From: an uncultured Candidatus Rokubacteria bacterium
GTDB lineage: Bacteria; Methylomirabilota; Methylomirabilia; Rokubacteriales; CSP1-6
NCBI GenBank assembly: GCA_963762145.1
Contig: CAVXJS010000021.1
Coordinates: 736,001 to 800,000 of the forward strand
DNA: 64,000 nucleotides
Reading direction: 5' to 3'
The notes below the pieces were generated by a model, which worked only from the letters and a program-made list of their open reading frames with translations, was not told the DNA's origin and ran no database searches. Below, piece after piece: positions 3,858-61,229 of this stretch; positions within the stretch are counted from its first letter, which is position 1; each line of letters begins with the position of its first letter. Position numbers and translations under genes: made by a program.

Positions 3858-3871
3858 GCAACTTCTGTGCC
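3858..3871 (-). promoter_or_regulatory. Putative sigma54 (-24/-12) promoter for the 3828-to-ligD operon
   Basis: Minus strand CCGGGCACAGAAGTTGCT = GG-N10-GC with GGCAC and TTGC. Confidence 0.7.
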
Positions 3872-3942
3872 CGGCCTGCACCTCGTGAAACCCACGCTCG
3901 CGTGCGCCGACGGCTCGCCGTACGAGCAGAAATCGGAACGGT

Positions 3943-4956
3943 TTACCCGGTAAGAACGGCGCGGACCCTCGGAAGGAGCTCGTGCTGATAAAAACGCATG
4001 AAGCCCGCCTGGTCCGGCCCGACCTGGTGCAGGCAGACGTGGTCGTAGCCGGCGTCGGCGTACTTCGCGATCCCGGCCACGTAGCGCTCCGGGTCCGGGC
4101 CGCAGACCACCGATTCAGCGACCGCGTCCTCGGTGACCAGCTCGGCGACGGCCTCGAAGTGAGCGGGCAGCGGCAGCTCCCACGACAGGCTGCTCTCCAT
4201 CGCCGCGGTGGGCCAGACCTCCCGCGCGGTGCGGCGCGCGGCCGACTCGCTCCGGGCCCAGCACACGGTCAGCTCCGCGTAGCGCGGCTTCCCGGCGCCT
4301 CCGGCCCGCTGAAACCGGTTGATCGCCTCGGCCGACGGGTCGGTCCCGACCATGCCGTCGGCCACCCGCCCGGCCAGATCGGCGCTCCGCGGGCCGCCGA
4401 CCGCCAGCAGCAGCGGCGGCGGCGCCTCCGGACAGGAGTACAGCCGCGCGTTCTCGACGGTGAAGTGCCGGCCGTGATGGCTCACGTTGTCGCCCGTCCA
4501 CAGCCGCCGGATCACCTGGACCGCCTCGAGCAGGCGCTCCTGGCGGACCTCGGTCTCGGGCCAGCCCTGCCCGACGATGTGCTCGTTGAGGTTCTCGCCC
4601 GTGCCCAGACCCAGGAAGAAACGCCCGTCCATCATGAGCGCGCACGTGGCGGCAGCCTGGGCCACCAGCGCGGGATGCATCCGCACGGTCGGACAGGTGA
4701 CCGCGGTGCCAAGCTCGAGACGCCGCGTGGCCTGCGCGATGCCGCCGATCACGCTCCAGACGAACGGACTCTGTCCCTGCCGATCGGTCCACGGGTGGAA
4801 GTGGTCGGAGATGAGGGCGAACGAGAAGCCGTGCTCCTCGGCCATGCCGGCCAGGCGAACCAACTGTCGGGGACCCTGCTCCTCGCTGGACAGCTTGTAG
4901 CCGATACGCACCGGACGGTTCCGGCGGCGCGTCGGCCGCCGCGTGCGCTTCCTCAT
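3943..4956 (-). CDS. F420-dependent LLM-class oxidoreductase (G6PDH-like, TIGR03557-type)
   Basis: IGYKLSSEEQ, ISDHFHPW, GTAVTCP, LGTGENLNEH motifs; ATGA overlap with upstream kinase. Confidence 0.88.
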   Translation of the reverse strand: MRKRTRRPTRRRNRPVRIGYKLSSEEQGPRQLVRLAGMAEEHGFSFALISDHFHPWTDRQGQSPFVWSVIGGIAQATRRLELGTAVTCPTVRMHPALVAQAAATCALMMDGRFFLGLGTGENLNEHIVGQGWPETEVRQERLLEAVQVIRRLWTGDNVSHHGRHFTVENARLYSCPEAPPPLLLAVGGPRSADLAGRVADGMVGTDPSAEAINRFQRAGGAGKPRYAELTVCWARSESAARRTAREVWPTAAMESSLSWELPLPAHFEAVAELVTEDAVAESVVCGPDPERYVAGIAKYADAGYDHVCLHQVGPDQAGFMRFYQHELLPRVRAVLTG

Positions 4957-6857
4957 ATCCGGCGCTCCTGGGGCAGCAGACTCGCGATCAGCGGCGCGAA
5001 CGCGGACGCTTCCACCGGCTTGGCCACGTGGCTGTCGTACCCCGCGCGCAGCGTCCGCCGCCGGTCCTCGGCCGCCGCGTACGCGGTCAGCGCGATGGCC
5101 GGGATGTGGCGGCCGCGCCCCGCCTCGAGGTGGCGCACCCGGCGGATCAGGTCGTAGCCGTCCTCGCCGGGCATGCCGATGTCGCTCACCAGCACGTCGG
5201 GCCACCGCTGCTCGATGGCGGCCACCGCCTCGGCCACCGACGGCGCGGTCGTCACCCGTGCCCCCTCGAAGCCGAGCGCCACCTTCAGGACCTCCCGCGT
5301 CTCGGCGTCGTCGTCCACGACCAGCACGTCCACGTTCTCGAGCCGGCGCGTCACGGTCGGATCGGGTCTGCCCGGCCGGGCGCGGGGCGGCGCCGGGACC
5401 GCCTCCGCCGCCGCGAGCGGCAGGCGGACCGTGAAGGTGGCGCCGCGGCCCTCCCCCGGACTCTCGGCCCGGATCGTGCCGCCGTGCAGCTCCACGATCT
5501 GCCGCGCGATCGAGAGCCCGATCCCGAGGCCGCCGTGCGATCGCATCGTGCCGCTCTCGCCCTGGCGGAAACGGTCGAAGACGTGCGGGACGAGCCCCGG
5601 CGTCATGCCGCGCCCCGTGTCGGTCACGGTCACCTCGGCCTCCGGGCCCACCCGGCGCAGCACCACCGTCACCCGGCCGCCCGCGGGAGTGAACCGGACC
5701 GCGTTCGACAGGAGGTTCCACAGTACCTGCTGCAGCCGCGTCGAATCGCCGAGCACCGGCCCGGTCGCGGGGTCGAGCGCGGTGGTCACCGTGATGGAGC
5801 GGTTCTCGGCCGCGGCGCGCACGGTCTCGATGGTCGGGACGATGACCGCGGCCAGGTCCACCCGCTCGATGGCGAGACGGAAGCGCCCCGAGACGATGCG
5901 CGAGACGTCCAGGAGATCCTCGATGAGCCGCGCCTGCAGGACCGCGCTGCGGTCGATGGTGTCGACCGCGCGGGCGAGGGTCTGCGAGTCCCGGGGCCCG
6001 TTGCGCAGGACACCCGCCCAGAGCCGGAGCGTGTTCAGCGGCGTGCGCAGCTCGTGGGAGACGACGGCCAGAAAATCGTCCTTGGCCTGGCTCGCCGCCT
6101 CCGCGTCCTGCCGGGCCTTTCGCTCGCGCGCGAGCAGCTCGCCGCGCTCGAGGTCGCGCGCCCGCGCGATCTCCTCGGCCACGTGGCGGCCGGTGGCATC
6201 GAGCGCCACGATCGCGACCGCGCGGGGCTCGCCCGCTTCGCGGGCCAGCGAGAGATTCACGGTCACCCGACGGATCGATCCATCCGGCCGGGCGTGCTGG
6301 GTCTCGAACGACGCCTCGGGAGCGTCCGGCCTCAGGCCGCGGAGCGCGGCCACCGCGCGGGGCCGATCCGCGACGGGGATGGTCTCCGCGAACGAGGCGT
6401 CGCGCACCTCGTCGGGGGCGCGGCCGACGAGGTCGCAGTAGCGCGCGTTGACGAGCACGAAGTGGCCAGCGAGGTCGGTCTGCGCGATGCCGACGGTGGG
6501 CTGGCCGACGATCGCGTCGAGCTGGGCGTCGCGGCTGCGGTCCGCGCGCCGGGCCAGGTCCCGCGCCTCCCCGGCCGCCTCGAGGTCACGCGTGAGATCG
6601 TCCGCCGTCTCCGCCATCCGCGTCATGGACCGGATGATGGCCTGGCCCGCGACCGCCGCCAGCCCCAGCGCAGACAGCAGCACCGCCGCGCATATCACGC
6701 CGAGCGCCCACATCCACGGCGTGGGCGCCGGCGCGACGAGGGCGAGGGTCAGCCACACCGAGAACGCCACCGCCGGCACCGCGCACAGGAGGACGAGCCC
6801 CACGAGGTACGCGCGGAGCGACAGGTGCGGCCGGCGCGGGGTCAGCGGGCCAGACAT
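4953..6857 (-). CDS. Hybrid sensor histidine kinase/receiver with 2 TM and PAS
   Basis: H-box SHELRTPL, N-box NLLSNAVRFT, DTGRG, GGLGIGL; receiver VDDD...SDIGMP...AKP. Confidence 0.93.
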   Translation of the reverse strand: MSGPLTPRRPHLSLRAYLVGLVLLCAVPAVAFSVWLTLALVAPAPTPWMWALGVICAAVLLSALGLAAVAGQAIIRSMTRMAETADDLTRDLEAAGEARDLARRADRSRDAQLDAIVGQPTVGIAQTDLAGHFVLVNARYCDLVGRAPDEVRDASFAETIPVADRPRAVAALRGLRPDAPEASFETQHARPDGSIRRVTVNLSLAREAGEPRAVAIVALDATGRHVAEEIARARDLERGELLARERKARQDAEAASQAKDDFLAVVSHELRTPLNTLRLWAGVLRNGPRDSQTLARAVDTIDRSAVLQARLIEDLLDVSRIVSGRFRLAIERVDLAAVIVPTIETVRAAAENRSITVTTALDPATGPVLGDSTRLQQVLWNLLSNAVRFTPAGGRVTVVLRRVGPEAEVTVTDTGRGMTPGLVPHVFDRFRQGESGTMRSHGGLGIGLSIARQIVELHGGTIRAESPGEGRGATFTVRLPLAAAEAVPAPPRARPGRPDPTVTRRLENVDVLVVDDDAETREVLKVALGFEGARVTTAPSVAEAVAAIEQRWPDVLVSDIGMPGEDGYDLIRRVRHLEAGRGRHIPAIALTAYAAAEDRRRTLRAGYDSHVAKPVEASAFAPLIASLLPQERRI

Positions 6858-8377
6858 GCCGGGCTCCTGGCCGCGGCCGGCTCGTCCGCCTCCGCATCCC
6901 GGTAGGCACGGAAGTGCGGATAGAGATCCACCGGATGCAGGAGCGGCGCCGCGGGCAGCCGCACGGATGGCGGGTGGAGAATGAAGGTGTGCAGCTCCTC
7001 CTCGGACGGGCCGGCGTGCGCGCCGAGCTCGTCGATGAAGCTCACGTCGCCCCCGGGCGCGCCCGTGCCGTACAGCACGATGTCACCCGCGCTCGGCATC
7101 GCCAGCAGGTCATGGAGCCCGGCCACGACCACCGCGCGATCGGCGCGCCGCGCGAACGGATCACGCACCGCGGGGTCGGACCCGCGGCCCAGCGGCACGC
7201 GATGACCGCGGTACCAGCAGAGGGGCCCGCGCGCGCCGCGCACGAGCACGAGACCGATCCCGGTGTGGCGCGACAGGCGCGCGAGGACACCCGGGTGGCG
7301 CGACTCGATCTCGGCCGCCGACAGGGTCTCGCGGCGATCCATGAAGTACACGAAGGCGTTGGGGCCGGCCGCGATCACCTTGACCTCGTCGCCCTCCACG
7401 CCGAGGGCGTCGCGCACCACTCGCTCGATCGTGATCCCCCGCGTGACGCGATGGAACGGCCGGGTCGGCGCCTGCCCGTGGTCCGAGAGGATGTAGAGGT
7501 CATAGCCCATCTCGGGGATGCGGCGGATGACGCGGGCGAGCTGCTGGATCGAGCGGTCCACCCGCCGCAGCGCGCGAAAGGCAAGACGGTCCGCGGGCCC
7601 GAAGGCGTGCGAGAACACGTCGTAGTCGAGGAAGTTGACGTAGATCGCGGGCACCCCGCGGTAGAGGTCGGCGGAGACGAGCAGCGTGAAGAGCTGCCGC
7701 GCCCAGATGGACACGCCGATGTCGATCGCGAGCGCCTCGATGGCGCGGCGGAGCGAGAGGCGCCCGGCGGTCAGCGCGGTCGCGGTACGGCCCACCGAGC
7801 GGGCGAGGGTCACGAGGGTGAGTCCCACGCACTTGAGCGCCACCCACCCGATCAGCAGCAGCGAGAGCGCGGTGCGGCGCAGACCGGAGCCGGCCCGGGT
7901 GAGGCGCTTCAAGCGCGCGTAGGTCCACAGGCTCTCGGGCGCACCGCCGGTGAAGACGCAGCCGTAGCAGGCGCCGTCCTCGAGGATCCCCGCGTGGCCG
8001 GCGGAGAGCCGACTCTCCACGTGATCGGCCACGCCGCGCTCGGGGAAGTGCAGCTCGCGGCCCTCGCGCTTGTCGTAGTAGTGAAAGCCCGGGATGTCCG
8101 GCCGAACGCCGTACATGATCGACGCCTGGAAGGCGGGCGTGGACGTGGGCAGCCCGACCGACAGTTCGCGCCGCTCGAGCTCGCCGGTCGCGAGGAGCCG
8201 CCGCGTGTTGCGCATGCTGCCGCCGGCCAGCGCCCGGTCGAGGATCCCGCGGGAGAGCCCGTCGATCTGGATGATCAGGAAGCGGCGGCGCGGCTCGATC
8301 CCGCCGGTCGGCGCGAGCCGCATCCACCGGCTCCATCGGTCCATCCCCGCCTGCAGTCGAAGGAAGAGCGACTCCAT
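6842..8377 (-). CDS. Alkaline-phosphatase-superfamily (NPP-type) phosphodiesterase
   Basis: IQIDGL, PTSTP nucleophile, DYDVFSH, SDHG, GAHAG metal ligands. Confidence 0.82.
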   Translation of the reverse strand: MESLFLRLQAGMDRWSRWMRLAPTGGIEPRRRFLIIQIDGLSRGILDRALAGGSMRNTRRLLATGELERRELSVGLPTSTPAFQASIMYGVRPDIPGFHYYDKREGRELHFPERGVADHVESRLSAGHAGILEDGACYGCVFTGGAPESLWTYARLKRLTRAGSGLRRTALSLLLIGWVALKCVGLTLVTLARSVGRTATALTAGRLSLRRAIEALAIDIGVSIWARQLFTLLVSADLYRGVPAIYVNFLDYDVFSHAFGPADRLAFRALRRVDRSIQQLARVIRRIPEMGYDLYILSDHGQAPTRPFHRVTRGITIERVVRDALGVEGDEVKVIAAGPNAFVYFMDRRETLSAAEIESRHPGVLARLSRHTGIGLVLVRGARGPLCWYRGHRVPLGRGSDPAVRDPFARRADRAVVVAGLHDLLAMPSAGDIVLYGTGAPGGDVSFIDELGAHAGPSEEELHTFILHPPSVRLPAAPLLHPVDLYPHFRAYRDAEADEPAAARSPACLAR

Positions 8378-8381
8378 CGCG

Positions 8382-9044
8382 CTACCCACGAGCGAGGGCC
8401 TTCCGGCCCAGCGCGGCCAGGACGACGAGCACGAGCGCGGCGGCGGCCGCCGCGGCGAGCAATGCCCAGGAGGCGGTCCCGCGCGTCGTCGCGTCCAGGA
8501 GGAGGCCGGCACCCACCACGAGCACCGCGTTCATCGGGATCATGGCCAGCTCCGACCAGCCGAAGTAGCGCCAGAAGGTGATGCCGGTCAGGCCGAAGCC
8601 GTAGTTCACGACCGCGAACGGCAAGATCGGAACGATGCGCAGCACCGGGATCACGGCCCAGTCGTGCTCCTCCACCAGCGCGGAGAGTCGCGTGAAGCCG
8701 TCGGTGCCGGCGAGCCGTTCCGCGAGGGCGTCGCGCGCGAGGTAGCGGGCGATGAGAAACCCGAGCGCGGCCGAGATCGCACTCGCCACCACCATGACGA
8801 CGAACGCGGGGACGATCCCGAAGAGAAACGGCGACAGCAGGGTGAAGGGCATGCCGGGCACGCCGATCAGGGTGGCGCCGACGTAGACGAGGACGAAGAC
8901 GGCGGGAGCGAGGACACCCAGCGTCGCGGTCCAGCCCTGCGCGGCCTCCAGGTACCGGCCCACGTCGACGACGTGGCCGACCCCCACCATGGCGAGCAGG
9001 AACAGGCCCGCCGCGACCAGCGGCCAGATGCGGCGCCGGCTCAC
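8382..9044 (-). CDS. TVP38/TMEM64 (VTT/DedA-superfamily) membrane protein
   Basis: LRIVPILPFAVVNYGFGLT, GFLIARYL motifs; multi-TM. Confidence 0.9.
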   Translation of the reverse strand: MSRRRIWPLVAAGLFLLAMVGVGHVVDVGRYLEAAQGWTATLGVLAPAVFVLVYVGATLIGVPGMPFTLLSPFLFGIVPAFVVMVVASAISAALGFLIARYLARDALAERLAGTDGFTRLSALVEEHDWAVIPVLRIVPILPFAVVNYGFGLTGITFWRYFGWSELAMIPMNAVLVVGAGLLLDATTRGTASWALLAAAAAAALVLVVLAALGRKALARG

Positions 9045-9104
9045 GGCAGGCGGGGGACGGGCGCGGCCACCGCGCGAAGCGGAGAGGCGGGCATGGCGGG
9101 CGCC

Positions 9105-9998
9105 CTAGGCCGACGGCTCGGGGGCCGGCGGTGCGGCGAGCGCGTCCGCGCCGATCGGCCGACTCGCCGCCTCGTCGATCGCAGCCGTCCAGATGGACGC
9201 GTCCTCCTCGCTCATGCTCCCGTGCGGCAGGAGCCGCGCGTCCTCGTAGCCCCAGAGCTGCACGTCCACGAGGTACTGCGCGCGCGAGGTCAGCGGGCCC
9301 CGGCAGATGCGCCGCGCGGGGGCCTGGCGCATCTCCTGCTCGAGGATCTCGAGGCACCGCCGCATGAGCGGCTCCGGGATGCGTCGCCGCTCGGACGGGT
9401 AGATGAAACCGAACATGATCAGGTGGCTCAGGAGCACGCGCCAGTGCTGGCCGAAGCGGCGGGTCAGGCGGCTCCAGTCGATCTGCTCGGCGCGCGCGTG
9501 GATGAGGTGCGCGATGTCCGCGCCGTCGTAGCGCTCGCGCTCCATCACGTAGGCCTTGGACCAGATCGTCTCCTCGACCGGGCAGAGATGCACCGGCTGG
9601 CCCATCACGGTCGCAGGAACCGCGTGACGGAACCACTCGTCGTCCACCGGGCAGGCCGAGTTGCCCGAGCTCCAGATGACGTCGATGTGGTCGTGGTCGT
9701 CGCGCTTGATCTTGCCGAGCCAGTGCGGAAACGTGAGCTCGCTGCGGTAGCCGAGACGCCGCTCCAGATGCGCGAGCGCGCGCGGCGCGTCCCGCTCGCG
9801 CATGAACAGGTCGAGATCCTTCACCGAGCGGCCGATGCCGAGATAGCGCTCGAGGGCGTGGCCGCCGCCCACGAGGAATGGAAATCCGCCCGCGCGCAGC
9901 TCCGCGAGCACTCGGCGGTAGAAGCGGCGCGTCGCCACCGGCAGCGCGGGCCTCCGAACCGGCGCGCGGCCCGCGGGGGCCGCCACCGCCGGGGTCAT
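9105..9998 (-). CDS. Pol-beta-superfamily nucleotidyltransferase of unknown function
   Basis: FLVGGGHAL...KDLDLF (hGG...DhD) plus HIDVI third acid; ATGA coupling to metallophosphoesterase. Confidence 0.82.
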   Translation of the reverse strand: MTPAVAAPAGRAPVRRPALPVATRRFYRRVLAELRAGGFPFLVGGGHALERYLGIGRSVKDLDLFMRERDAPRALAHLERRLGYRSELTFPHWLGKIKRDDHDHIDVIWSSGNSACPVDDEWFRHAVPATVMGQPVHLCPVEETIWSKAYVMERERYDGADIAHLIHARAEQIDWSRLTRRFGQHWRVLLSHLIMFGFIYPSERRRIPEPLMRRCLEILEQEMRQAPARRICRGPLTSRAQYLVDVQLWGYEDARLLPHGSMSEEDASIWTAAIDEAASRPIGADALAAPPAPEPSA

Positions 9999-10803: not shown

Positions 10804-10817
10804 GCAACCCCCATGCC
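10804..10817 (-). promoter_or_regulatory. Putative sigma54 promoter for the metallophosphoesterase operon
   Basis: Minus strand CCGGGCATGGGGGTTGCA; -12 C lies 15 nt from ATG 10789. Confidence 0.68.
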
Positions 10818-10886
10818 CGGGGGCGGCCTCGCCAAACCTCGTGTTACCGGCAGGCGGCCGCGCGAAGCCACCCGGGTCGGAAGCTC

Positions 10887-11384: not shown

Positions 11385-11398
11385 GGCCGCTGTTGACA

Positions 11399-11412
11399 GC
11401 AACCGCGGTGCC
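11399..11412 (-). promoter_or_regulatory. Putative sigma54 promoter (consensus match) for DUF1772 gene
   Basis: Minus strand CTGGCACCGCGGTTGCT; 15 nt to ATG 11384. Confidence 0.78.
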
Positions 11413-11447
11413 AGCCGGATCGGGTCGTCCCGACCGGGTCTCCCCCT

Positions 11448-11461
11448 GGCAGCGGGCTTGC
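11448..11461 (+). promoter_or_regulatory. Putative sigma54 promoter for the secreted protein at 11476
   Basis: CTGGCAGCGGGCTTGCA; 15 nt to ATG 11476. Confidence 0.75.
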
Positions 11462-15818: not shown

Positions 15819-15832
15819 GCAATGGCCGTGCC
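15819..15832 (-). promoter_or_regulatory. Putative sigma54 promoter for the multi-GAF kinase
   Basis: Minus strand TCGGGCACGGCCATTGCG. Confidence 0.62.
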
Positions 15833-15951
15833 CGATCTCGGGCCGGCGCAACGGCGTGGTTTCTTGGCGCTTGTCGCACCGTGTCGCGCGCGGACCCGGT
15901 CTCGACAGGTAAGTTAAACCCGGTAAGGTTCGATCCGGCTCGGAGGAGCGA

Positions 15952-41632: not shown

Positions 41633-41718
41633 GGGCGGACGCCGCCCTGACGCAAATCGCGCCGAAGAAGGTGCGCCCCCGCTCCATAAGCCGCCGACTT
41701 TTCAGTCATGGAAGGACT

Positions 41719-41732
41719 GGCCTCCGTCTTGC
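41719..41732 (+). promoter_or_regulatory. Putative sigma54 promoter for the gene at 41748
   Basis: CTGGCCTCCGTCTTGCT; 16 nt to ATG. Confidence 0.6.
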
Positions 41733-41747
41733 TCCCTCTCAACGCTC

Positions 41748-42272
41748 ATGGCCTCACCGGAGCGCAACATCAGCGCGGTGGATCAGCGCCTCGTCGGCCT
41801 CGAGGACGAGGCGACACGGCTGCGCGCGGAAGTGGCCGCGCTCCAGGAGGAGATCCGCTGGCTCAGCGGCCAGGACGAGGAGCCGGCGGGCTGGCTGTCG
41901 CGCGGCTGGGTGCGCGCTTCGCTGCTCCTGACCGCGATCGGCATGGTCGGTCTCGTCTCGCTCCCGTATCTCCTCAATCTCGACGCCTCCGGTCCGCATG
42001 CCGATCCGACGCCCGGCGCGGCCGCCTCCGCCCGCCCGGCTCCCGCCGCGCCGCGTCCCGCGGTCGCCCCCGCGCCCGTCAAGGCCGAGCGCCGCGACGA
42101 CGCCTCGACTCCGACCCGCGTCCGCGCCCCCGAGGGCCCCGAGCCCGCGCGCGTCCTGTCCGCGGAGGACCGTACCACCGCCGCCCCCCGCCCGCGGCCC
42201 GTCCGCGAGCGGCGCGGGCCCCAGCCGTCGGACGCCGTCGTCGTCGCGCCCGGTCGCGGCGAGAGCCCCTAG
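41748..42272 (+). CDS. Hypothetical protein: coiled coil, single TM, Pro/Ala/Arg-rich tail
   Basis: DQRLVGLEDEATRLRAEVAALQEEI heptads, then LLLTAIGMVGLVSLPYLL. Confidence 0.62.
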   Translation: MASPERNISAVDQRLVGLEDEATRLRAEVAALQEEIRWLSGQDEEPAGWLSRGWVRASLLLTAIGMVGLVSLPYLLNLDASGPHADPTPGAAASARPAPAAPRPAVAPAPVKAERRDDASTPTRVRAPEGPEPARVLSAEDRTTAAPRPRPVRERRGPQPSDAVVVAPGRGESP

Positions 42273-43501
42273 GCCCGCGCGGGCCCCCGCAGCCGCCCCG
42301 CCCACACCGAGAGCGCGGCCACCCCGGCCGCCGCGGCGGCCAGCACGAAGGCGATCGCGTAGCTCCCCGTCGCATCGAAGATCCGCCCGGCCAGCCACGC
42401 GCCCAGCGCGCTCCCGAGCGCGCTCGCCACCTGGGTCGCGCCGAAGATCGAGCCGAAGTGCGGCCCGCGGAAGCGGTCGCTCATCATGGCGGGCACGATG
42501 AACGCGGTGACCGAGTAGCCCACCCCGAACAGCACCGCGTAGCCGAGGGCGAGCCACGCCGTCGGCGCCAGCGCCACGAGCCACAGTACGCCCACTCCGC
42601 CGATCATGCCGATCATGCCGAGCGCGTAGACCAGCTCGCGCGAGAGGTGATCCGAGATCCAGCCTCCCCCGGTCTTGCCCACGATGCTGGAAGCGCCCAC
42701 CACGCTGATCACCGAGGCGGCGGTCATGGCCGGGAGGCCGTGGTCCACGAGGAACGCGGCCTGGTGGACGTGCAGCGTCTGGCTGCAGATGCTGCCGAGG
42801 AAGACGGCCAGACCGATGAGTCGAAAGGACGGATTGGCCAGCGCCAGCCCGAGGGAATGCTCGCCGGCGCCCGGCGTGCCCGCCGGGCCGCGCGCGGCGG
42901 GCTCGCGCGGCGCCGGCGGCGTGTCGCGGATGGCCAGGAAGGTCGCGGGCAGGATCCAGAGCGCGCACAGGATGGCGAGCGCGCGAAAGGCCCAGCGCCA
43001 GCCGAAGCCGTCGATCAGCGCCTGGCAGAGCGGGACGACCAGGAAGATTCCCAGGCCGACGCCGGAGCCCGCGATGCCGAGGGCCAGGCCCAGGCGCGCC
43101 TTCCACTGCCGCTGCACCATCACCACCGCCGGCGTCCAGCCCGCGGTCGCCACCCCGACCGCGGTGAGCAGACCGAAGGTCAGGTAGAGGTGCCACGCGC
43201 GCGTGACCAGGCTGTCCGCCCAGAGCGAGCCCGCCAGCAGCACGCCGCCGATCAGGATGAGCCGGCGCGGCCCGAAGCGATCGGCGAGCGCGCCCAGCAC
43301 CGGCCCGGCGCCCCCGCTGACCAGCGTGAAGATCGAGAAGGCGCCGGCCAGCACCGAGCGGCTCCAGCCGAACTCCCGCAGCAGCGCGACCAGGAAGACG
43401 CTGTAGGCGTACCAGACCCCGTAGGCCAGCGCGAGGGTGACGACGGTGACGCCGAGAGCGAGATACGACGGTGCGGGCGAGGCCGCCGGGTCAGGGCGCA
43501 T
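42269..43501 (-). CDS. MFS transporter (OFA/MCT-like)
   Basis: EFGWSR, GALADRFGPRR, GWRWA, GWISD, GRIFDATGSY. Confidence 0.92.
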   Translation of the reverse strand: MRPDPAASPAPSYLALGVTVVTLALAYGVWYAYSVFLVALLREFGWSRSVLAGAFSIFTLVSGGAGPVLGALADRFGPRRLILIGGVLLAGSLWADSLVTRAWHLYLTFGLLTAVGVATAGWTPAVVMVQRQWKARLGLALGIAGSGVGLGIFLVVPLCQALIDGFGWRWAFRALAILCALWILPATFLAIRDTPPAPREPAARGPAGTPGAGEHSLGLALANPSFRLIGLAVFLGSICSQTLHVHQAAFLVDHGLPAMTAASVISVVGASSIVGKTGGGWISDHLSRELVYALGMIGMIGGVGVLWLVALAPTAWLALGYAVLFGVGYSVTAFIVPAMMSDRFRGPHFGSIFGATQVASALGSALGAWLAGRIFDATGSYAIAFVLAAAAAGVAALSVWAGRLRGPARA

Positions 43502-43524
43502 GGGCGCCCCACCATACCGCGGCG

Positions 43525-44889
43525 TCAGTCCAGGCGGAAGCCGCCGGCGAGGCGCCGGGTCAGGAGCTCGCGCTCCTCCTCGAGGCTCGGATCGAGACGC
43601 ACCGCGGTCTGCACCGCGCGCAGGCCTTCCTGATCGCGGCCGAGGCTCAGCAGGCTGCGCCCCAGGTTCGCGTGGGTGGGCGCGTCGTCGGGATTGAGCG
43701 CGAGCGCGGCGCGGTAGGCCGCCACCGCCTCGTCGTACCGCCGGAGGGTCTGCAGCGCCACGCCCAGGTTGGCGTGGGCGCGGAAGTGATTCGGGTTGAC
43801 GCGGATCGCGTTGGAGAGCCAGTCCACCGCCAGGTCGTACTGGTCGAGCTCCATGTAGAGGCGGCCGAGGTTGGCGTACGGCCAGGAGAACTTCGCGTCG
43901 GCCGCGATCGCTTTCTGGTACGCGGTCGCCGCCGCGCCCTGATCGCCGAAGCGGTACTGGAGGTTGTACGCCGCGATGTTCAGCGACTCCGCGGTCTTCG
44001 GCACGTCGTACGCGGGCAGGCGGGTGCGGAGGAAGGTCTCCGCCTCGCGCCGCGCGCGCGCGTCCGGCGCGCGGCGGATCCGGTCCTGCAGCACCAGCCG
44101 CGAGAGCCGGACCAGGTTGGCGTCGGTCAGCGCGCGCCCGAGCGGCAGGAGGCAGTCCGAGCGCTCCGGCGCGGCGAGCAGGCCGACCAGGGCGCGCGTC
44201 TCGGCCCCCACCGTGCCGCGGCCGGCCGCGCAGTAGTCGGTGCCCTCGCGCACCCAGCCGCGCGCGCGCGCCACCTCGAGCGCCCGGGCGGGGTCGCCCG
44301 CCTCGAGGTGCGTGGCGAACAGGGCCGCCGCCACCACCTCGCGATCGAGCACCGCATTGGCCAGCCCCACCCGGCTCGCGTGCAGCGAGCGGAACACCCA
44401 GTCGGGCAGCATGCGGCCCCAGCGCGAGCCGTTGAGCGAGACGGTGAGCCGCTCGATCGTGTGCTGTCCGGTCTGCGCCCACCGCTCGCCGCGGGTGGAT
44501 GGCGCCTGCAGGCTGGCGTTCAGGTATTCGGTCGCGAGCGCGGTATTGCCCATGCGCTCGGCCATGGCCCCGGCCCGGTAGTAGACCAGGCCCGAGGGCT
44601 GCAGGCGGCTCGCGCGGCTGAAGGCGTCGAGCGCCTCGTCGAACTCGCCCAGCAGCTCGGCCGTCGCGCCACGCCGCATCTGCGCCTCGAGCGAGGCCGG
44701 CTCCGCGACCGCGGCGGTCCGGTAATGGTTCAGCGCCTCACGGAGGGCCCGCTGCTGGGCCGCCTCGTCACCGGCCTTGATCGAGCCCCGGGCCCTCGAG
44801 TCGGGGCCATTGCAGCCCATCGCCAGCAGGGACACGGCCAGGGCGATGCCGAAGATCCAGCGCATGAGCCCGGGAGGGATGGCCAGCAT
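43525..44889 (-). CDS. Tetratricopeptide-repeat lipoprotein
   Basis: Lipobox LAMG-C; TPR repeats (YANLG, HANLG, ALALNP). Confidence 0.82.
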   Translation of the reverse strand: MLAIPPGLMRWIFGIALAVSLLAMGCNGPDSRARGSIKAGDEAAQQRALREALNHYRTAAVAEPASLEAQMRRGATAELLGEFDEALDAFSRASRLQPSGLVYYRAGAMAERMGNTALATEYLNASLQAPSTRGERWAQTGQHTIERLTVSLNGSRWGRMLPDWVFRSLHASRVGLANAVLDREVVAAALFATHLEAGDPARALEVARARGWVREGTDYCAAGRGTVGAETRALVGLLAAPERSDCLLPLGRALTDANLVRLSRLVLQDRIRRAPDARARREAETFLRTRLPAYDVPKTAESLNIAAYNLQYRFGDQGAAATAYQKAIAADAKFSWPYANLGRLYMELDQYDLAVDWLSNAIRVNPNHFRAHANLGVALQTLRRYDEAVAAYRAALALNPDDAPTHANLGRSLLSLGRDQEGLRAVQTAVRLDPSLEEERELLTRRLAGGFRLD

Positions 44890-44903: not shown

Positions 44904-44917
44904 GCAACATTCTTGCC
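44904..44917 (-). promoter_or_regulatory. Putative sigma54 promoter for the TPR lipoprotein
   Basis: Minus strand GTGGCAAGAATGTTGCC; 15 nt to ATG 44889; also a GGCAA-N5-TTGCC dyad. Confidence 0.62.
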
Positions 44918-45039
44918 ACCCGGAATGCGGGCCAAGTAATCGGAATTGCAGGAGCCGCCAGGCGGCGATGTGACGAAATTGGGCCGCCAGCTGACACCGA
45001 GTCGTCCGGTGTCCACGGGATGCCGGCGCCGCGGGCCGG

Positions 45040-55566: not shown

Positions 55567-55632
55567 GGCGCGTACTATACCGCCGTTGGCGGTGTATATT
55601 CACCCCCCGAGCACCCCTCGGAAGGAGACGCC

Positions 55633-56307: not shown

Positions 56308-57959
56308 GCCCCGTCCCGGCGCAGTAGCTCGAGGATGCGCTCCCCGGTGATCTCGCCGGGGATCAGCACGTGATCGGCGCCCGCGCGCAGCAGGTCCTCC
56401 ATGTCGGTCCGCTCCTCGCCGGTCATCACGATGATCGCGCGCGGCGCGAGACGGCGCAGATTGCCCACCAGCCGGCGCGTGCTGATGCCCTTGAGAAAGG
56501 TGTCGGAGATCGTGGTCACCACGATGCGGGCCTCCTCGATCCCGAGGTGCTCGAGGGCGTCGGGATTGGCGAGATCGCCGTACTCCCAGAGGAATCCGCG
56601 GGCCCGGACCCCGTGGGCCCGATTGGCGTCGTAGTCCACCAGGGTGATGCGCTCCTTGAGCTCGGGCGCCTGCGCCTCCACCAGATCGAGCACCGCCTGG
56701 GCGATCCGGAAGTGGCCGAGCAGCACGATGCTGCGCTCCGGGCGCGGGCCCGTGGCGGGCGCGGCGGCCCCGCCCGCGGCGGGACCGCGCGCGAAGGGCC
56801 GCAGGAGCCAGCGGGCGATGCGGTCGTTGCCGATGATGAGGTAGGGCGACAGCAGCGAGGTGAGGATCATCGCGGTGAGCACCACCGCGCTCACGTGCGC
56901 CGAGACTTGACCATAGCCCGCCCCGAGGGTCAGGATCACGAGCGAGAACTCGCTGATCTGGGCGAGGTTCAGCGCGGTGACCAGACCCGCGTAGAGGCCG
57001 TTGCCCATGACGTACGCGGGGGGCAGCACCGAGAGCACGCGGCTCACCAGCACGAAGGCCACGATGAGCAGCGCATGGCCCAGGACGTCTCCGCTCGGCA
57101 CCGGCACCTTCATGCCGAGGGCCACGAAGAACAGCGTGACGAAGAAGTCGCGCACGCCGGTGACCTTGGAGATGACGTCGGCGCCGTACGGGAACGCGGA
57201 GATGCTCACCCCCGCGATCAGGGCGCCCATCGCGCGCGACAGCCCGAGCTCGTCCGCGACGCCCGCGATGCCGAAGCACCACGCCACCGAGGAGATCAGC
57301 ACCAGCTCCGGCCGGCGCGCGGACGCTTCGAGCAGCGGGGCCAGGAGGTAGCGGCTGGCCAGGAACGTGACGCCGACCAGCACCGCGCCCCCCGCGATGG
57401 ACTGCGCGATCCGGAGCACCCCCGGCTCGGCCAGGTTCGGCTGCACCGCCATGAACAGGATGGCCCAGATGTCCTGGACCACGAGGACGCCCAGGGTGAG
57501 CCGGCCCGAGAGGATCTTGAGCTCGAACTTCTCGCGCAGGAGCTTGACCACGATCAGGGTCGAGCTCAGCGAGATCACGATCGCGAGGTAGACGAGATCG
57601 AAGTGGCCGTCGGCCACCCGGTAGCCGAGCCAGGAGAAGAAGGCGAGGCCCAGCAGGCCGTTGATCGCGAACTGGCCCACCCCCAGGACCAGCATGGGGC
57701 GGCCCAGACGCTCGAGCTCGCGCAGGTCGATCTCGAGCCCGATGATGAAAAGGAGGAGGATCAGGCCGATCTCCGAGATCAGCTCGGTGCTCTCCGCGCT
57801 GGTGACGAGGCCGAAGCCCATCTGCGGGCTCAGCAGGATCCCCCCCGCGATGTAGCCCAGGAGCAGCGGCTGCTGCAGCAGCCGGGCCACGTGCCCCAGG
57901 ATCGCGGCGAACATGATCCCGAGGGCGATGTCGCGGAGCAGGGTCACGTCGTGCGGCAC
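56304..57959 (-). CDS. CPA2 (Kef-type) cation:proton antiporter with TrkA_N domain
   Basis: LLFIIGLE, SSTLIVVK, VQD, FFVALG, QISEF, YGD. Confidence 0.92.
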   Translation of the reverse strand: MPHDVTLLRDIALGIMFAAILGHVARLLQQPLLLGYIAGGILLSPQMGFGLVTSAESTELISEIGLILLLFIIGLEIDLRELERLGRPMLVLGVGQFAINGLLGLAFFSWLGYRVADGHFDLVYLAIVISLSSTLIVVKLLREKFELKILSGRLTLGVLVVQDIWAILFMAVQPNLAEPGVLRIAQSIAGGAVLVGVTFLASRYLLAPLLEASARRPELVLISSVAWCFGIAGVADELGLSRAMGALIAGVSISAFPYGADVISKVTGVRDFFVTLFFVALGMKVPVPSGDVLGHALLIVAFVLVSRVLSVLPPAYVMGNGLYAGLVTALNLAQISEFSLVILTLGAGYGQVSAHVSAVVLTAMILTSLLSPYLIIGNDRIARWLLRPFARGPAAGGAAAPATGPRPERSIVLLGHFRIAQAVLDLVEAQAPELKERITLVDYDANRAHGVRARGFLWEYGDLANPDALEHLGIEEARIVVTTISDTFLKGISTRRLVGNLRRLAPRAIIVMTGEERTDMEDLLRAGADHVLIPGEITGERILELLRRDGA

Positions 57960-58038
57960 GGGTCGCGGGCACCTCGGTCTTGAGATAGAATCGGTCGCCG
58001 TATCCTAACCAACTTTGGCAGGTTCCGAGGAGGAACTC

Positions 58039-59022
58039 GTGGAGCGACGCACACTCGGCAAGAGCTCGCTGGCGGTGTCCGCGGTCGGTCTCGGCTGCAT
58101 GTCCATGTCCAACGTGTACGGCAAGGGCGACGAGACGGAGTCCATCGCGGTCGTCCATCGCGCGCTCGACCTCGGCGTGAACTTCCTCGACTCCTCCGAC
58201 ATGTACGGCTGGGGCCAGAACGAGGAGCTGCTGGGCCGGGCCCTGCGCGGCCACCGCGACCAGGTGGTGCTCGCCACCAAGTTCGGCAACCTCCGCAAGC
58301 CGGACGGGACCGCGGGCGTCAACGGTCGCCCCGAGTACGTGCCCCAGGCCTGCGACGCGAGCCTGAAGCGCCTGGGGGTGAGCACCATCGACCTCTACCT
58401 CCAGCACCGGGTGGACCCGAGCGTGCCGATCGAGGACACGGTGGGCGCGATGTCGCGCCTGGTGGAGGCGGGCAAGGTGCGCTTCATCGGGCTGTCGGAG
58501 GCCTCCCCGGCCACCGTGCGCCGCGCGCACAAGATCTACCCGATCACCGCGCTGCAGTCCGAGTTCTCCCTGCTCTACCGCGTGGAGGCGGAGGAGACGC
58601 TGCCGACCCTGCGCGAGCTGGGCGTCTCCTTCATGGCCTACTCCCCGCTCGGTCGCAGCCTGCTGACCGGGCGCACCCGCTCCGCGGCGGAGATCCCCTC
58701 CGACGACCGGCGGCGCGACCACCCGCGCTTCCAGGAGGAGAACCTCAAGAAGAACCTCGATCTGCTGAAGCCGCTCGACGAGATGGCCCGGAAGAAGGGC
58801 TGCTCGCCCGGGCAGCTCGCGCTGGCCTGGCTGCTCGCGCGGGGCCGCGACATCGTGCCGATCCCGGGCACCAAGCGAAAGGACCGGCTGGAGGAGAACG
58901 TGGGCGCCGCGGACGTGCGCCTCACGCCCGAGGAGGTCGCCGCGCTCCAGGACGCCGTTCCAGCCGGCGCGGCCGCGGGCGAGCGCTATCCGGGGCCCGC
59001 GATGAAGTCGGTCTACATCTAG
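58039..59022 (+). CDS. Aldo/keto reductase
   Basis: GLGCM, DSSDMYG, ATKFG, HRVD, YSPLGR, PIPGT. Confidence 0.94.
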
Positions 59023-59035
59023 GCCCCCGGCACCC

Positions 59036-59878
59036 GTGGGGGACTGGCTCGAGACGTACCGCGGCACCGTCTTCCGCTGGGAGGTGGACCCGAACGACCA
59101 CCTCACCGTGGCGTACTACTTCGCCCGCATCGCCGACGCGGGGGCGGGGCTGCTGGCCGCGGTCGGCCTGAGCGCCGCGGTCGTCCACACCGCCGACTCC
59201 TACGTACGCTACCAGCGCGAGCTGCGGGTGGGCGACATCATGCACATGGAGAGCGGCGTGATCGCGGTGGACCTCGACGCGCTGGTGCTGGGCCACAAGC
59301 TCTTCGACTCCGGCGCGGGCGTCCTCTGCACCACGGTGGAGCAGCGCGTGCGCCTCGCCGGGCCCCTGCCCGCGGAGACGCGGCGGGCCCTGGAGGCGCA
59401 CCGGGTGGGCTGGGACGGGCCCGCCCGCGAGCGGCGGCCGCGGCCGCCGGGCCTCGCGGGCTTCCGGGACAGCGCGCGCGACGTCGTCAAGCCGCTGGAG
59501 GTGGACATCTCGGGCGGCGCCGCACTCTCGCACTACATCCACCGGTTCTCGGCGGCCAACGGCCACGCCATCGCCGCGTTCGGCATGACCCCGGCCTACA
59601 TGCGCGCGGAGCACCGCGGCTTCTCCACCTTCGAGTTCCAGCTCGAGCTCGGGACCCCTCTCCGGCCGGGGGACGGCGTGCGGGTGCGCTCCGGCGTGAT
59701 GCACGTGGGCAACTCGTCGCTGCGTCTCCTGCACGTGATGACGCGGGAGCCGGGCGACGAGGTCGTGGCCACGCTCGAGCAGTCCGGCGTCCACTTCGAT
59801 CAGGACGCGCGCCGGCCCGCCCCGCTGCCCGACGGCCTGCGCGAGCGCGCGCGGGCGCTCCTCGTCAAGGACGCCTGA
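59036..59878 (+). CDS. Double-hotdog acyl-CoA thioesterase
   Basis: WEVDPNDHL..AYY and EVDISG repeats; HVGNSS. Confidence 0.8.
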   Translation: MGDWLETYRGTVFRWEVDPNDHLTVAYYFARIADAGAGLLAAVGLSAAVVHTADSYVRYQRELRVGDIMHMESGVIAVDLDALVLGHKLFDSGAGVLCTTVEQRVRLAGPLPAETRRALEAHRVGWDGPARERRPRPPGLAGFRDSARDVVKPLEVDISGGAALSHYIHRFSAANGHAIAAFGMTPAYMRAEHRGFSTFEFQLELGTPLRPGDGVRVRSGVMHVGNSSLRLLHVMTREPGDEVVATLEQSGVHFDQDARRPAPLPDGLRERARALLVKDA

Positions 59879-60741
59879 TGCCGTTGAAGCTGGGGCTCTT
59901 CTCGATGACCACCGGCCCCTGCACCTATCCGGACGGGGCGGCCCGCGTGGCGCGCGCGGCGGAGTCGGCCGGTTTCGACTCGCTGTGGGGCGGCGAGCAC
60001 GTGGTGCTGCCGGACCCGCGCGTGCCCCCGTCGCCGCTCGAGCCCGAGGACCGCATCATGGACCCGGTGGTGACGCTCGCCTTCCTGGCCGCGCACACCA
60101 CGCGCATCCGGCTCGGCACCGGCATCATCATCCTGCCGCAGCGCAACCCGCTGGTGCTGGCCAAGCAGCTCGCCTCGCTCGACGTGCTCTCCGGCGGCCG
60201 CCTGATCTTCGGCGTGGGGGTGGGCTACCTCGAGCCCGAGTTCCGCGCGCTCGGCATTCCGTTCGAGCACCGCGGCCCGGTCACCGACGAATACCTGGCC
60301 GCACTGCGGGTGATCTGGAGCGAGGCGCGGCCCGCGTATCGCGGCCGCTTCGTGAGCTTCGAAGGAGTGCAGGCGCATCCCCACCCGGTGCAGCAACCCG
60401 GGCCGCCGCTCGTGGTGGGCGGGCACACCGAGGCCGCCTTCCGGCGGGCGGTCGAGCAGGGGCACGGCTGGTACGGCTTCGCCCTCGACGAAGGCGGCGT
60501 GCAGCGGTGCCTGGACGGTCTCGGTCAGGCGGCCGCGCGGCACGCGCGACCCGCCGCGCTGGGCCCGCTCGAGATCAGCGTCACCCCGCGCCCGACCCGG
60601 GGCGGCGAGGCGATGGACCGCGCGACCGCGGACCGCTTCGCCGCGCTCGGGGTCCACCGCCTGATCCTGATGCCGCCGCGGTCACTCGACGCGGCCGGTC
60701 TCGAGCGGTTCGTGGAGAAGGCCGCCCGCGAGCTCCGCTAG
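59878..60741 (+). CDS. LLM-class F420-dependent oxidoreductase (Rv2161c-like)
   Basis: GFDSLWGGEHVVLP, LGTGIIILPQRNP, LDVLSGGR, GVGYLEPEF. Confidence 0.9.
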   Translation: MPLKLGLFSMTTGPCTYPDGAARVARAAESAGFDSLWGGEHVVLPDPRVPPSPLEPEDRIMDPVVTLAFLAAHTTRIRLGTGIIILPQRNPLVLAKQLASLDVLSGGRLIFGVGVGYLEPEFRALGIPFEHRGPVTDEYLAALRVIWSEARPAYRGRFVSFEGVQAHPHPVQQPGPPLVVGGHTEAAFRRAVEQGHGWYGFALDEGGVQRCLDGLGQAAARHARPAALGPLEISVTPRPTRGGEAMDRATADRFAALGVHRLILMPPRSLDAAGLERFVEKAARELR

Positions 60742-60798
60742 GACGCCGCCTCCCGTAGCCTCGGCGGCGACCTCGCATATGGTCCTATCCCTCTGAAT

Positions 60799-60819
60799 CC
60801 CCCCCCCTCCCCCCCCCCC
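60799..60819. repeat. Homopolymer tract C9-T-C11 (G11-A-G9 on minus strand)
   Basis: Seen directly between convergent genes. Confidence 0.8.
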
Positions 60820-60824
60820 TGAGC

Positions 60825-61173
60825 TCAGTTCGCCCGCTCCGGGCGACCCCACTCGATCGCGAAGCCCACCCCCGGCCAGCCCGGATTGTCGTGATCACCA
60901 CCGACGCGGGAGCCCACCGGCGGATTCGCCGCACTCAAGCCCGCCACGCCCGCGCGACCCCGACTTGGTGTCCTTCGACAGTGGCGCGATGAAGTTCGGA
61001 CGACCCGGCAGCGCCGGGCGGTGCGGCTGAAGATCTCGTTCGGGAACCGCCGGCGCGATGCGCTCGCGCTGAGCCGGTGTCGTCTTCAGGTCCATCGACT
61101 GCGCGGCGACGGTGAGCGGCAGCAGCGTCAACGGCGCGGCAACGAGCAGAGCCACGATGGTTCGGATAAGCAT
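60825..61173 (-). CDS. Small secreted hypothetical protein (frameshift near 60960)
   Basis: Signal peptide MLIRTIVALLVAAPLTLLPLTVAA; AAGGAGG SD; second frame ends GWPGVGFAIEWGRPERAN*. Confidence 0.65.
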
Positions 61174-61215
61174 GGTCGTCGTCCTCCTTCGCTACTTGAC
61201 GACACTCCCTAGGAC

Positions 61216-61229
61216 GCACGGTCCATGCC
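61216..61229 (-). promoter_or_regulatory. Putative sigma54 promoter (weaker match)
   Basis: Minus strand TTCGGCATGGACCGTGCG. Confidence 0.45.

Follow-up and report, generated by a model that had tools for sequence, protein, structure and literature searches.

Sigma-54-type promoters abutting start codons in a Candidatus Rokubacteria genome, with probable leaderless transcripts

The genome of an uncultured soil bacterium (Candidatus Rokubacteria/Methylomirabilota) carries -24/-12 motifs that are, in all likelihood, genuine sigma-54 (RpoN) promoters, and about a quarter or more of these probably serve leaderless transcripts, their -12 element lying 13-17 nt before the start codon. The observations behind this reading are the motif, its spacing peak and conservation, the presence of rpoN and activator genes, and the N-termini of the encoded proteins. 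About 50 genes genome-wide have a start codon 13-17 nt past the -12 C, and their products are chiefly envelope proteins and small proteins of signal transduction, namely PilZ proteins and single-domain response regulators. The layout was noticed in the window, the 64,000-nt stretch of DNA analysed here, by a first-pass annotation; its observation is confirmed, and its interpretation as a sigma-54 regulon with near-leaderless mRNAs is supported, each of the in-silico tests it suggested having turned out in its favour.

Promoter motifs and genes of the window

Eight GG-N10-GC motifs had been listed, and their coordinates and strands all proved correct (Table 1; at the two plus-strand sites the bare motif begins at 11448 and 41719). 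The composition described for them was likewise recovered: TTGC is present in seven of the eight (GTGC at 61216), GGCA in seven of the eight (GGCC at 41719), and a CGGGCA variant is read at 3858, 10804 and 15819. Apart from 61216, the sites match four to six of the six additional consensus positions. The distance to an ATG, given as 15-16 nt for five motifs, measures 15, 15, 15, 16 and 15 nt. The other three sites are conserved sigma-54-type promoters with Shine-Dalgarno (SD) leaders.

Table 1. Sigma-54-type promoters, upstream boxes and associated genes in the window; distances to the A of the ATG are counted from the -12 C.
Feature	Position	Strand	Distance (nt)	PWM score	Remarks
Sigma-54-type promoter GGGCAC-N5-TTGCT	3858..3872	-	30	14.6	Ordinary short leader with AGGAGG; ATG 3828
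Gene behind promoter 3858, 212 aa	3190-3828	-			ATG 3828
Sigma-54-type promoter GGGCAT-N5-TTGCA	10804..10818	-	15	13.6	-12 C at 10804; no SD
Metallophosphoesterase gene, 264 aa	9995..10789	-			ATG 10789; Pfam Metallophos
Perfect-consensus sigma-54 promoter TGGCAC-N5-TTGCT	11399..11413	-	15	18.7	Genome-wide rank 29
Membrane protein gene (Anthrone_oxy-type), 165 aa	10887..11384	-			ATG 11384
Sigma-54-type promoter TGGCAG-N5-TTGCA	11447..11461	+	15	14.6	
Gene of 275 aa	11476..12303	+			ATG 11476; no Pfam family
Sigma-54-type promoter GGGCAC-N5-TTGCG	15819..15833	-	35	12.0	ATG 15784
Hybrid histidine kinase gene, 1157 aa	12311-15784	-			Pfam domains
Conserved T-rich box (GACTTTTCAG.CATCG)	41696..41711	+			A short way upstream of the -24 element; seen at relatives' loci
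Sigma-54-type promoter TGGCCT-N5-TTGCT	41718..41732	+	16	15.9	
Gene of 174 aa	41748..42272	+			ATG 41748; no Pfam family
Sigma-54-type promoter TGGCAA-N5-TTGCC	44904..44918	-	15	13.3	
Conserved upstream box, AATTCCA.GTACTTAGCC type	44930..44947	-			About -55 to -38; kept in genus relatives
TPR protein gene, 454 aa	43525..44889	-			ATG 44889
Weak sigma-54-type motif CGGCAT-N5-GTGC	61216..61230	-	43	< 9	42-nt spacer containing GAAGGAGG
Gene behind motif 61216, 92 aa	60895-61173	-			ATG 61173; signal-peptide-like N-terminus

The promoters at 11399 and 11447 stand back to back in divergent orientation, with a gap of just 33 bp. The gene behind promoter 41718 is present in 17 of 20 genus genomes; a longer ORF overlapping it (41708-43633) is probably spurious, the opposite strand encoding an MFS transporter (42269-43501). 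This transporter gene follows the TPR protein gene on the same strand, and the two probably form one operon. The box upstream of the TPR promoter may serve DNA bending or the binding of a regulator.

The sigma-54 machinery presupposed by the first-pass annotation is encoded in the genome, namely a single rpoN gene of 490 aa (Sigma54_AID 2-47, CBD 127-314, DBD 327-484) and about 21 full Sigma54_activat domains (PF00158, E 1e-58 or better); none of the about 21 enhancer-binding proteins is encoded inside the window.

Spacing peak and conservation

The bare motif GG-N10-GC occurs in the window at chance level (1891 matches vs 1865 +/- 39 in shuffles), and TGGCA-N6-TTGC with at most two mismatches is under-represented there (90 vs 136 +/- 12). 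Because the bare motif is uninformative, the significance of the window sites rests on their position. At PWM scores of 13-14 bits, a range that covers three of the five ATG-abutting window sites, real and null match numbers are about equal genome-wide, and these three sites rest on position and conservation.

Genome-wide, the perfect consensus is found 57 times vs 5 in a reversed-sequence null, nearly all 57 sites lying in non-coding DNA, and a real ORF opens 14-17 nt further on at 10 of them with ATG and at 3 with GTG. When one mismatch is allowed, overall enrichment is absent (289 real vs 314 in the reversed-sequence null). Near-consensus sites, defined as.GG...N5..GC with at least five of six further consensus bases (whole genome, n=289), nevertheless show the sharp spacing peak that a regulon of this kind had been predicted to produce: ATG lies 14, 15 and 16 nt past the -12 C in 16, 27 and 9 cases, that is 52 of 289 vs about 11 expected from a background of 3.55 per position with a maximum of 10 (distances 40-189; Poisson p 1e-19). 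The peak is specific to ATG, as GTG at 13-18 nt occurs 7, 10, 5, 3, 4 and 5 times vs a background of 5.5, or 18 vs about 17 expected at 14-16 nt, which agrees with the AUG preference of leaderless genes; a crude caller assigns 2621 ATG and 1715 GTG start codons genome-wide. A further cluster of starts, with SD sequences, lies at 24-30 nt. The logo of 63 abutting sites reads as the canonical TGGCAC-N5-TTGC(T/A). Any regulon size obtained with the PWM is partly circular, since the abutting sites trained it. Upstream, a phased A/T element appears at -55, -45 and -34, and the T-rich box at 41696..41711 coincides with its genome-wide T-rich position, -45 to -41.

Conservation upstream of orthologues, anticipated for true promoters, was found for all eight sites. 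At the five abutting promoters the genus relatives retain the two boxes, with a spacing of 13-18 nt, but differ in the sequence of the spacer. For 10804 the boxes are kept in 9/9 genus relatives (ATG at 14-17 nt, spacer diverged), although the motif was not seen at the single locus from another family (f4); 11399 is kept in 4/4 relatives (ATG at 14-15 nt). The boxes of 11447 recur in 12/13 genus relatives with a spacer unrelated in sequence and ATG at 13-16 nt, and at 14 orthologous loci of the 275-aa gene beyond the genus the layout is not kept. Of the relatives' loci, the 18 whose upstream DNA could be read all retain promoter 41718 (ATG at 15-18 nt), its T-rich box being nearly invariant at 16 of the 18, with the box beyond the compared stretch at the other two; TGGCA(A/G)G(A/G)ATGTTGC marks promoter 44904 in 15/16 genus relatives (ATG at 14-17 nt), the motif being cut off by the edge of the compared stretch in the sixteenth. 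As for the SD-led sites, GGCACAGAAGTTGCTC at 3858 is identical in 3/4 relatives, 5/5 relatives keep the 15819 motif together with a portion of its leader, and CGGCA(T/C)G-N4-(G/A)TGCGTCC at 61216 is kept in 3/3 despite its weak match.

When 41 genomes from the order are scanned, the exact pattern gives 136 matches at a spacing of 15 vs 1 in a backward control, compared with 20 at a spacing of 21 and 827 for spacings 5 to 35 summed. Against a uniform expectation of about 3 per cent, the spacing-15 share is 35/202 in the genus, 118/920 in the rest of its family (f1), 13/133 in f4, 4/67 in f7, 13/232 in f8 and 1/46 in f6, f9, f10 and f11 pooled.

Start codons, transcript starts and competing readings

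The ATGs abutting these promoters appear to be true N-termini. Profile position 1-2 of the Pfam family falls at residues 3-10 in REC, ROK, LpxC, DAGK, HPF, PilZ and pseudopilin proteins, position 1 of Metallophos aligns to residue 5 of the window metallophosphoesterase, and orthologues of the TPR protein conserve their N-terminal sequence from residue 1. Hence, while the starts came from a crude home-made coding score and 11 of 51 non-window genes lack a Pfam domain anchoring the N-terminus, mis-assignment, with true starts downstream behind an internal ribosome-binding site and ordinary leaders, is exceedingly improbable: many of the encoded proteins enter a Pfam domain at residues 3-10, orthologues are conserved from codon 1, public gene calls start exactly at these ATGs for all five window proteins, and unused ATGs would give no reason for an ATG-specific peak at a fixed promoter distance. 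It is also very improbable, if marginally less so, that sigma-54 does not read the motif at all, the sites belonging to another factor or arising by chance in GC-rich DNA while other promoters drive the genes. The link to sigma-54 is drawn from sequence, and in the window neither the bare motif nor its looser forms exceed chance; yet no informative position of the logo departs from the sigma-54 consensus (T at -26, CAC at -23 to -21, TT at -15/-14, T/A at -11), perfect sites far exceed their null, rpoN and activators are encoded, and the boxes are conserved where their flanks have diverged. From these data we infer sigma-54 dependence in vivo.

Between the -12 C and the ATG lie 13-17 nt, nearly all or all of them ahead of any plausible transcript start. 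With ATGs 14-18 nt past the -12 C, the layout implies a transcript 5' end 0-5 nt from the start codon. In SD-led genes of this genome GGAG/GAGG begins 9-13 nt ahead of the start codon; at 13-17 nt from the -12 C to the ATG, therefore, no SD could be transcribed, and the absence of an SD claimed for the five abutting genes holds. The genome seems, moreover, to possess a larger sigma-70-type leaderless class of several hundred genes: TANNNT begins 12, 13, 14, 15 and 16 nt ahead of ATG 60, 81, 72, 62 and 51 times vs a background of about 15, and is also enriched 12-13 nt ahead of GTG starts. Leaderless translation would therefore already be in use here, and the abutting layout is apparently not peculiar to sigma-54 in this genome. 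C occupies position -1 in 47/60 sigma-54 cases and in 75 per cent of the sigma-70 leaderless class, vs 719/1348 SD-led starts (p 1e-4). RNA data comprise four soil metatranscriptome contig sets, assembled contigs with short gene-body pieces only.

The exact start of transcription is where two accounts of real sigma-54 promoters part, and start position is all that distinguishes them. By the -24/-12 naming the textbook sigma-54 start lies 12 nt past the -12 C, so that an ATG at 15 nt leaves a 3-nt leader, not zero; the 3-4 nt leader proposed earlier is thus one of two readings, the other being a start on the A of ATG, which would fit the C at -1. The canonical start, giving leaders of 2-6 nt as in the first-pass annotation, is quite possible, if a little short of an even chance. 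The naming convention itself speaks for it, as does G, a good initiating base, at -3 in 38/60 sigma-54 cases vs 536/1348 SD-led starts, and the 5-nt-wide -10-to-ATG window (12-16) of the sigma-70 leaderless class points to a tolerance of short leaders in this genome. The G at -3, however, keeps its position relative to the ATG and not to the promoter in the 14-nt and 15-nt classes (81 and 61 per cent); the C at -1 and A at +1 form the pyrimidine-purine pair usual at transcription start sites, shared with the sigma-70 leaderless class; and the few GTG starts of perfect sites sit at 14, 14 and 15 nt. More specifically, Rokubacteriales sigma-54 may start exactly on the A of ATG, 14-15 nt past the -12 C and 2-3 nt beyond the textbook position, which together with the phased A/T element at -55/-45 would amount to a distinct lineage-wide, leaderless and enhancer-gated architecture of about 50 genes per genome; this we advance tentatively, with rather more doubt than conviction.

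For the leaderless sigma-54 promoters as a whole, we infer the transcript start and the mode of translation as follows. Sigma-54 RNA polymerase would bind TGGCAC-N5-TTGCW as a closed complex, to be opened by one of the about 21 enhancer-binding ATPases; transcription would begin on the A of ATG or at most about 4 nt ahead of it, and the resulting mRNA, devoid of an SD, may be translated by the leaderless route, like the sigma-70-type leaderless genes of the genome.

Known systems and biological meaning

Canonical enhancer-dependent -24/-12 promoters such as glnAp2 and nifH have the same two boxes, 10-bp spacing and extended consensus as the sites described here. They usually precede an SD-bearing leader, a layout shown by three of the eight window sites, whereas the start codon follows the -12 C by 13-17 nt at five window sites and in about 50 genes genome-wide. 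The sigma-54 consensus reportedly derives from the Barrios 1999 compilation. PMC5243855 names Barrios 1999 as its weight-matrix source.

Leaderless genes of the sigma-70 type, with the -10 box beside the ORF, are described in Deinococcus-Thermus (PMC12340547), and leaderless genes feature in start-site maps of S. meliloti (PMC3616915) and B. japonicum (PMC4842269), the latter paper stating that specific promoters have not been described for leaderless genes. Such genes share the transcript start at or beside the AUG, the lack of an SD and the strong ATG preference. Here, in contrast, the promoter is enhancer-dependent and needs an ATPase to open the DNA, and expression should therefore be strictly signal-gated. 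In Desulfovibrio vulgaris Hildenborough, the sigma-54 promoters of orp1 and orp2 have IHF sites at -42/-43 (PMC3897727), a bending site that resembles the phased A/T element, although the latter is out of register with the IHF consensus. The orp1 and orp2 mRNAs have leaders, the legend of Figure S1 in that source marking Shine-Dalgarno sequences. A literature search found no description of sigma-54 promoters abutting start codons without a leader; the pairing of two known mechanisms, a sigma-54 promoter and a leaderless message, is apparently undescribed.

To our knowledge, sigma-54 promoters are the sole bacterial class that stays silent without an ATP-driven activator, and leaderless mRNAs escape all control by the 5' leader. 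In combination, the enhancer-binding protein alone would set gene output, and among the genes placed under such control here are numerous response regulators of a single domain and receptors for c-di-GMP (PilZ). If confirmed, the layout would widen the known geometry of sigma-54 initiation, showing that the start site is shifted or else that leaders of 2-4 nt are translated efficiently, and would provide expression signals that are both compact and tightly switchable. Such genes can be mis-handled by gene finders that rely on an SD and by sigma-54 predictors built on the assumption of a leader. Start codons and regulons would become predictable by sequence alone in uncultured, very abundant soil phyla.

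Position of sigma-54 motifs relative to start codons

The signal of the sigma-54 sites is positional and does not lie in the frequency of the bare motif. Re-reading of the window recovered all eight GG-N10-GC motifs of the first-pass annotation at their coordinates (see the table), with TTGC in seven of the eight, GGCA in seven of the eight and a CGGGCA variant at 3858, 10804 and 15819. The gap of 15-16 nt claimed between the -12 C and an ATG was confirmed at five of them, which share the layout termed abutting here: a -24/-12 promoter with ATG about 14-18 nt after the -12 C and no SD. The leaders of 3858 and 61216 contain SD-like sequence. Bare GG-N10-GC is not enriched over shuffled sequence in the window (1891 vs 1865 +/- 39), and TGGCA-N6-TTGC with up to two mismatches is rarer there than expected (90 vs 136).

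The assembly containing the window (6.26 Mb in 25 contigs, G+C 70 per cent, completeness 88 per cent, contamination 5.4 per cent), in which the window is G000:C21:736001-800000, was scanned with a consensus set independently of start codons,.GG...N5..GC with five or more matches to T, C, A, C, T, T. Genome-wide, the one-mismatch consensus is not above the reversed-sequence null (289 vs 314), so only the spacing of this class is counted as evidence, never its totals; many of the 289 matches being noise, the spacing peak is the more striking. The predicted peak was found: ATG counts at 14, 15, 16, 17 and 18 nt are 16, 27, 9, 9 and 7, against a background of 3.55 per position (maximum 10) measured at 40-189 nt; the 52 cases at 14-16 nt correspond to a Poisson p of 1e-19. 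Over 14-18 nt, 68 ATGs were observed and about 18 expected, an excess that places the abutting layout in about 50 genes. No GTG peak accompanies it among these matches (7, 10, 5, 3, 4 and 5 at 13-18 nt vs a background of 5.5).

The perfect consensus occurs 57 times genome-wide vs 5 in reversed sequence, and at nearly all 57 sites the upstream DNA is non-coding. A real ORF opens 14-17 nt away with ATG at 10 and with GTG at 3 of the 57, and at about nine further sites an SD-led start lies 24-30 nt away; the latter, together with a lower ATG bump at 27-30 nt among the 289 matches, correspond to minimal SD-bearing leaders. Alignment of 63 sites with ATG at 14-16 nt yields T-GG-CAC-N5-TT-GC-(T/A), which, judged by sequence, is the sigma-54 consensus. 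Position weight matrix (PWM) counts suggest a total of about 120 sigma-54 promoters, a rough figure because the matrix was trained on abutting sites and the scan is partly circular; the PWM served for ranking and approximate regulon size only. The machinery that such a regulon presupposes is encoded: a single rpoN (490 aa, with AID, CBD and DBD domains) has an ABC ATPase gene upstream and a rapZ-like gene downstream, and about 21 full sigma-54 activator domains of bEBPs are found in the genome, none of them inside the window. Two extra motif matches in the window (13.5-13.6 bits), absent from the first-pass list, have no start codon at abutting distance and are for this reason probably due to chance. 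At gathering thresholds, Rfam gave no match anywhere in the window.

Profile alignments argue that the ATGs at abutting distance are real N-termini. In genes with this layout, Pfam position 1 or 2 aligns at residues 3-10 in six REC proteins, 8-10 in PilZ, 8 in ROK and DAGK_cat, 7 in N_methyl, 5 in S30AE/HPF and Metallophos, and 4 in LpxC. Public gene calls contain all five window proteins from the abutting ATGs, letter for letter, and most members of their clusters have the same length.

Features of the window and side loci (positions without a prefix refer to the window; spacing is counted from the -12 C)
Feature	Position (strand)	ATG in window	Boxes kept	ATG distance or leader in relatives
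Promoter 3858	3858-3871 (-)	30 nt	3/4 relatives	SD leader
Promoter 10804	10804-10817 (-)	15 nt	9/9 in genus, absent in single f4 locus	14-17 nt
Promoter 11399	11399-11412 (-)	15 nt	4/4 relatives	14-15 nt
Promoter 11448	11448-11461 (+)	15 nt	12/13 genus relatives	13-16 nt
Promoter 15819	15819-15832 (-)	35 nt	5/5 relatives	35-nt leader in window
Promoter 41719	41719-41732 (+)	16 nt	18/18 loci	15-18 nt
Promoter 44904	44904-44917 (-)	15 nt	visible in 15/16 relatives, 16th outside displayed stretch	14-17 nt
Promoter 61216	61216-61229 (-)	43 nt	3/3 relatives	SD leader
Gene downstream of 61216	60895-61173 (-)
Upstream A/T element	41696-41711 (+)
Upstream A/T element	44930-44947 (-)
GGTTTC/GAAACC box	3881-3893 (-)		partly conserved
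GGTTTC/GAAACC box	10832-10848 (-)		partly conserved
GGTTTC/GAAACC box	15847-15865 (-)		partly conserved
Between -24 T's of divergent promoters	11414-11446
Extra motif match	9326-9339 (+)
Extra motif match	63936-63949 (-)
Open frame, 641 codons	41708-43633 (+)
MFS transporter gene	42269-43501 (-)
HPF/S30AE gene L084	G000:C21:1174261-1174656
HPF/S30AE gene L089	G000:C17:29053-29727
lpxC gene L090	G000:C21:137436-138350

Conservation among relatives

Relatives of RpoN at 62-98 per cent identity come mostly from records labelled Candidatus Rokubacteria, Rokuibacteriota or Methylomirabilota, with a few bins labelled otherwise. Across 41 genomes of the order, the pattern with spacing 15 has 136 matches, vs 1 for the same pattern backwards as control and 20 for spacing 21; all spacings from 5 to 35 together give 827, so that spacing 15 takes 16 per cent of matches vs 3 per cent if they were uniform. 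Per-group shares of spacing 15 among all spacings 5-35, taken over 121 sampled genomes from the phylum (G068, G084, G095 and G132, flagged unpublished, left out), are descriptive and not tests, because kin are not independent: 35/202 in the genus, 118/920 in the rest of family f1, 13/133 in f4, 4/67 in f7, 13/232 in f8, 1/23 in f11, 0/6 in f3, 0/10 in f6, 0/3 in f9 and 0/10 in f10.

Conservation upstream of orthologues, proposed as a check by the first-pass annotation, extends to all eight promoters, at which both boxes are kept (counts in the table). In every promoter the spacer sequence has been rewritten and the boxes retained, with spacer length within the 5-6-nt range seen genome-wide. 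The loci of the 61216 relatives are homologous at the DNA level. For the 275-aa gene served by promoter 11448, a consistent motif at abutting spacing was not found in other genera (14 loci, 40-50 per cent identity).

Probable leaderless translation and the transcript start

This genome is rich in SD sequences, and leaderless translation is, by the following signature, probably in use as well. Genome-wide, TANNNT lies 12-16 nt before ATG starts 60, 81, 72, 62 and 51 times vs a background of about 15. Ahead of GTG starts its counts at 12 and 13 nt are 43 and 32 vs about 10. This enrichment reads as the signature of a large sigma-70-type leaderless class. That the range spans 12-16 nt for ATG and only 12-13 nt for GTG suggests that AUG tolerates a leader of 0-4 nt, whereas GUG must be at the very 5' end.

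The sigma-54 transcript start may lie at either of two positions. Transcription may begin on the A of the ATG, in keeping with the dinucleotide C(-1)A(+1) and with the GTG starts at perfect sites, which stand at 14-15 nt; C is found at -1 in 47 of 60 sigma-54 cases and in 75 per cent of sigma-70 leaderless cases, vs 719 of the 1348 starts led by an SD (p 1e-4). Alternatively, it may begin at the canonical position and give a leader of 2-4 nt, as would be consistent with the textbook start 12 nt after the -12 C and with G at -3 in 38 of the 60 cases. The allowed range is five positions wide in both classes, 14-18 nt for sigma-54 and 12-16 nt for sigma-70, and this shared width suggests a leader tolerance of about 0-4 nt, which would place the sigma-54 start near 13-14 nt. 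A search of soil metatranscriptomes returned 6 runs with 6-8 per cent of sampled words; contigs from four runs are short, lie within the metallophosphoesterase and 275-aa genes, mostly at 90-95 per cent identity, and come without ends or strand.

Upstream elements and genes served

Genome-wide, the 160 strongest sigma-54 sites are preceded by a position-specific A/T element, with A enriched at -55/-54 (0.39), T at -44 to -42 (0.34-0.38) and, more weakly, T at -34/-33, spaced roughly a helical turn apart. At 29 of the 160 sites, a word of the type TTTCC, GATTT or TGATT begins at -45/-44, vs about one per position elsewhere. The element may serve to bend the DNA or as a contact for the alpha subunit. 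These words resemble half of the IHF consensus; that consensus fits the -45 element poorly, the A peak at -55/-54 being about 2 nt out of register.

Two promoters stand back to back at 11399-11461; only 33 bp separate their -24 T's, so each occupies the upstream region of the other, and 4 relatives show the same arrangement. The CGGGCA-variant promoters each have a box containing GGTTTC/GAAACC about 10-35 nt upstream of the -24 element, and the three may share a regulator.

A Pfam survey covered 51 genes with the abutting layout outside the window. Receiver domains occur in 12 (2 hybrid kinases and 10 response regulators, of which most have a single domain), PilZ in 3, HPF/S30AE in 2, and one gene each encodes an enhancer-binding protein and a small Fis-type HTH protein; envelope proteins are many (LpxC, OmpA, SLT-LysM, MlaC, pseudopilin, glycosyl and nucleotidyl transferases), metabolic enzymes few, and 11 lack a Pfam family. 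The five genes with this layout in the window encode a metallophosphoesterase, a small membrane protein, two family-less proteins and a TPR protein; an MFS transporter gene follows that of the TPR protein. No Pfam family matches the 641-codon open frame antisense to the MFS transporter gene; this frame is probably a shadow ORF of GC-rich DNA. The HPF/S30AE ('sigma-54 modulation protein') genes L084 and L089 lie behind abutting sigma-54 promoters, and one of them is fused to a cold-shock domain. The gene for the lipid A enzyme LpxC (L090) appears to lie behind a perfect-consensus promoter, with ATG at 17 nt.

Full-text searches, with subscription journals outside their scope and absence unproven, found no literature joining sigma-54 with leaderless mRNAs; the texts consulted include PMC12754779, PMC3616915, PMC4842269, PMC5243855, PMC9045368, PMC12403871, PMC11704786, PMC3897727 and PMC4641369. 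A B. japonicum start-site paper states that leaderless genes have had no specific promoters described for them (PMC4842269). On the sequence evidence, the abutting sigma-54 layout is a real, conserved and lineage-wide variant of two known mechanisms.
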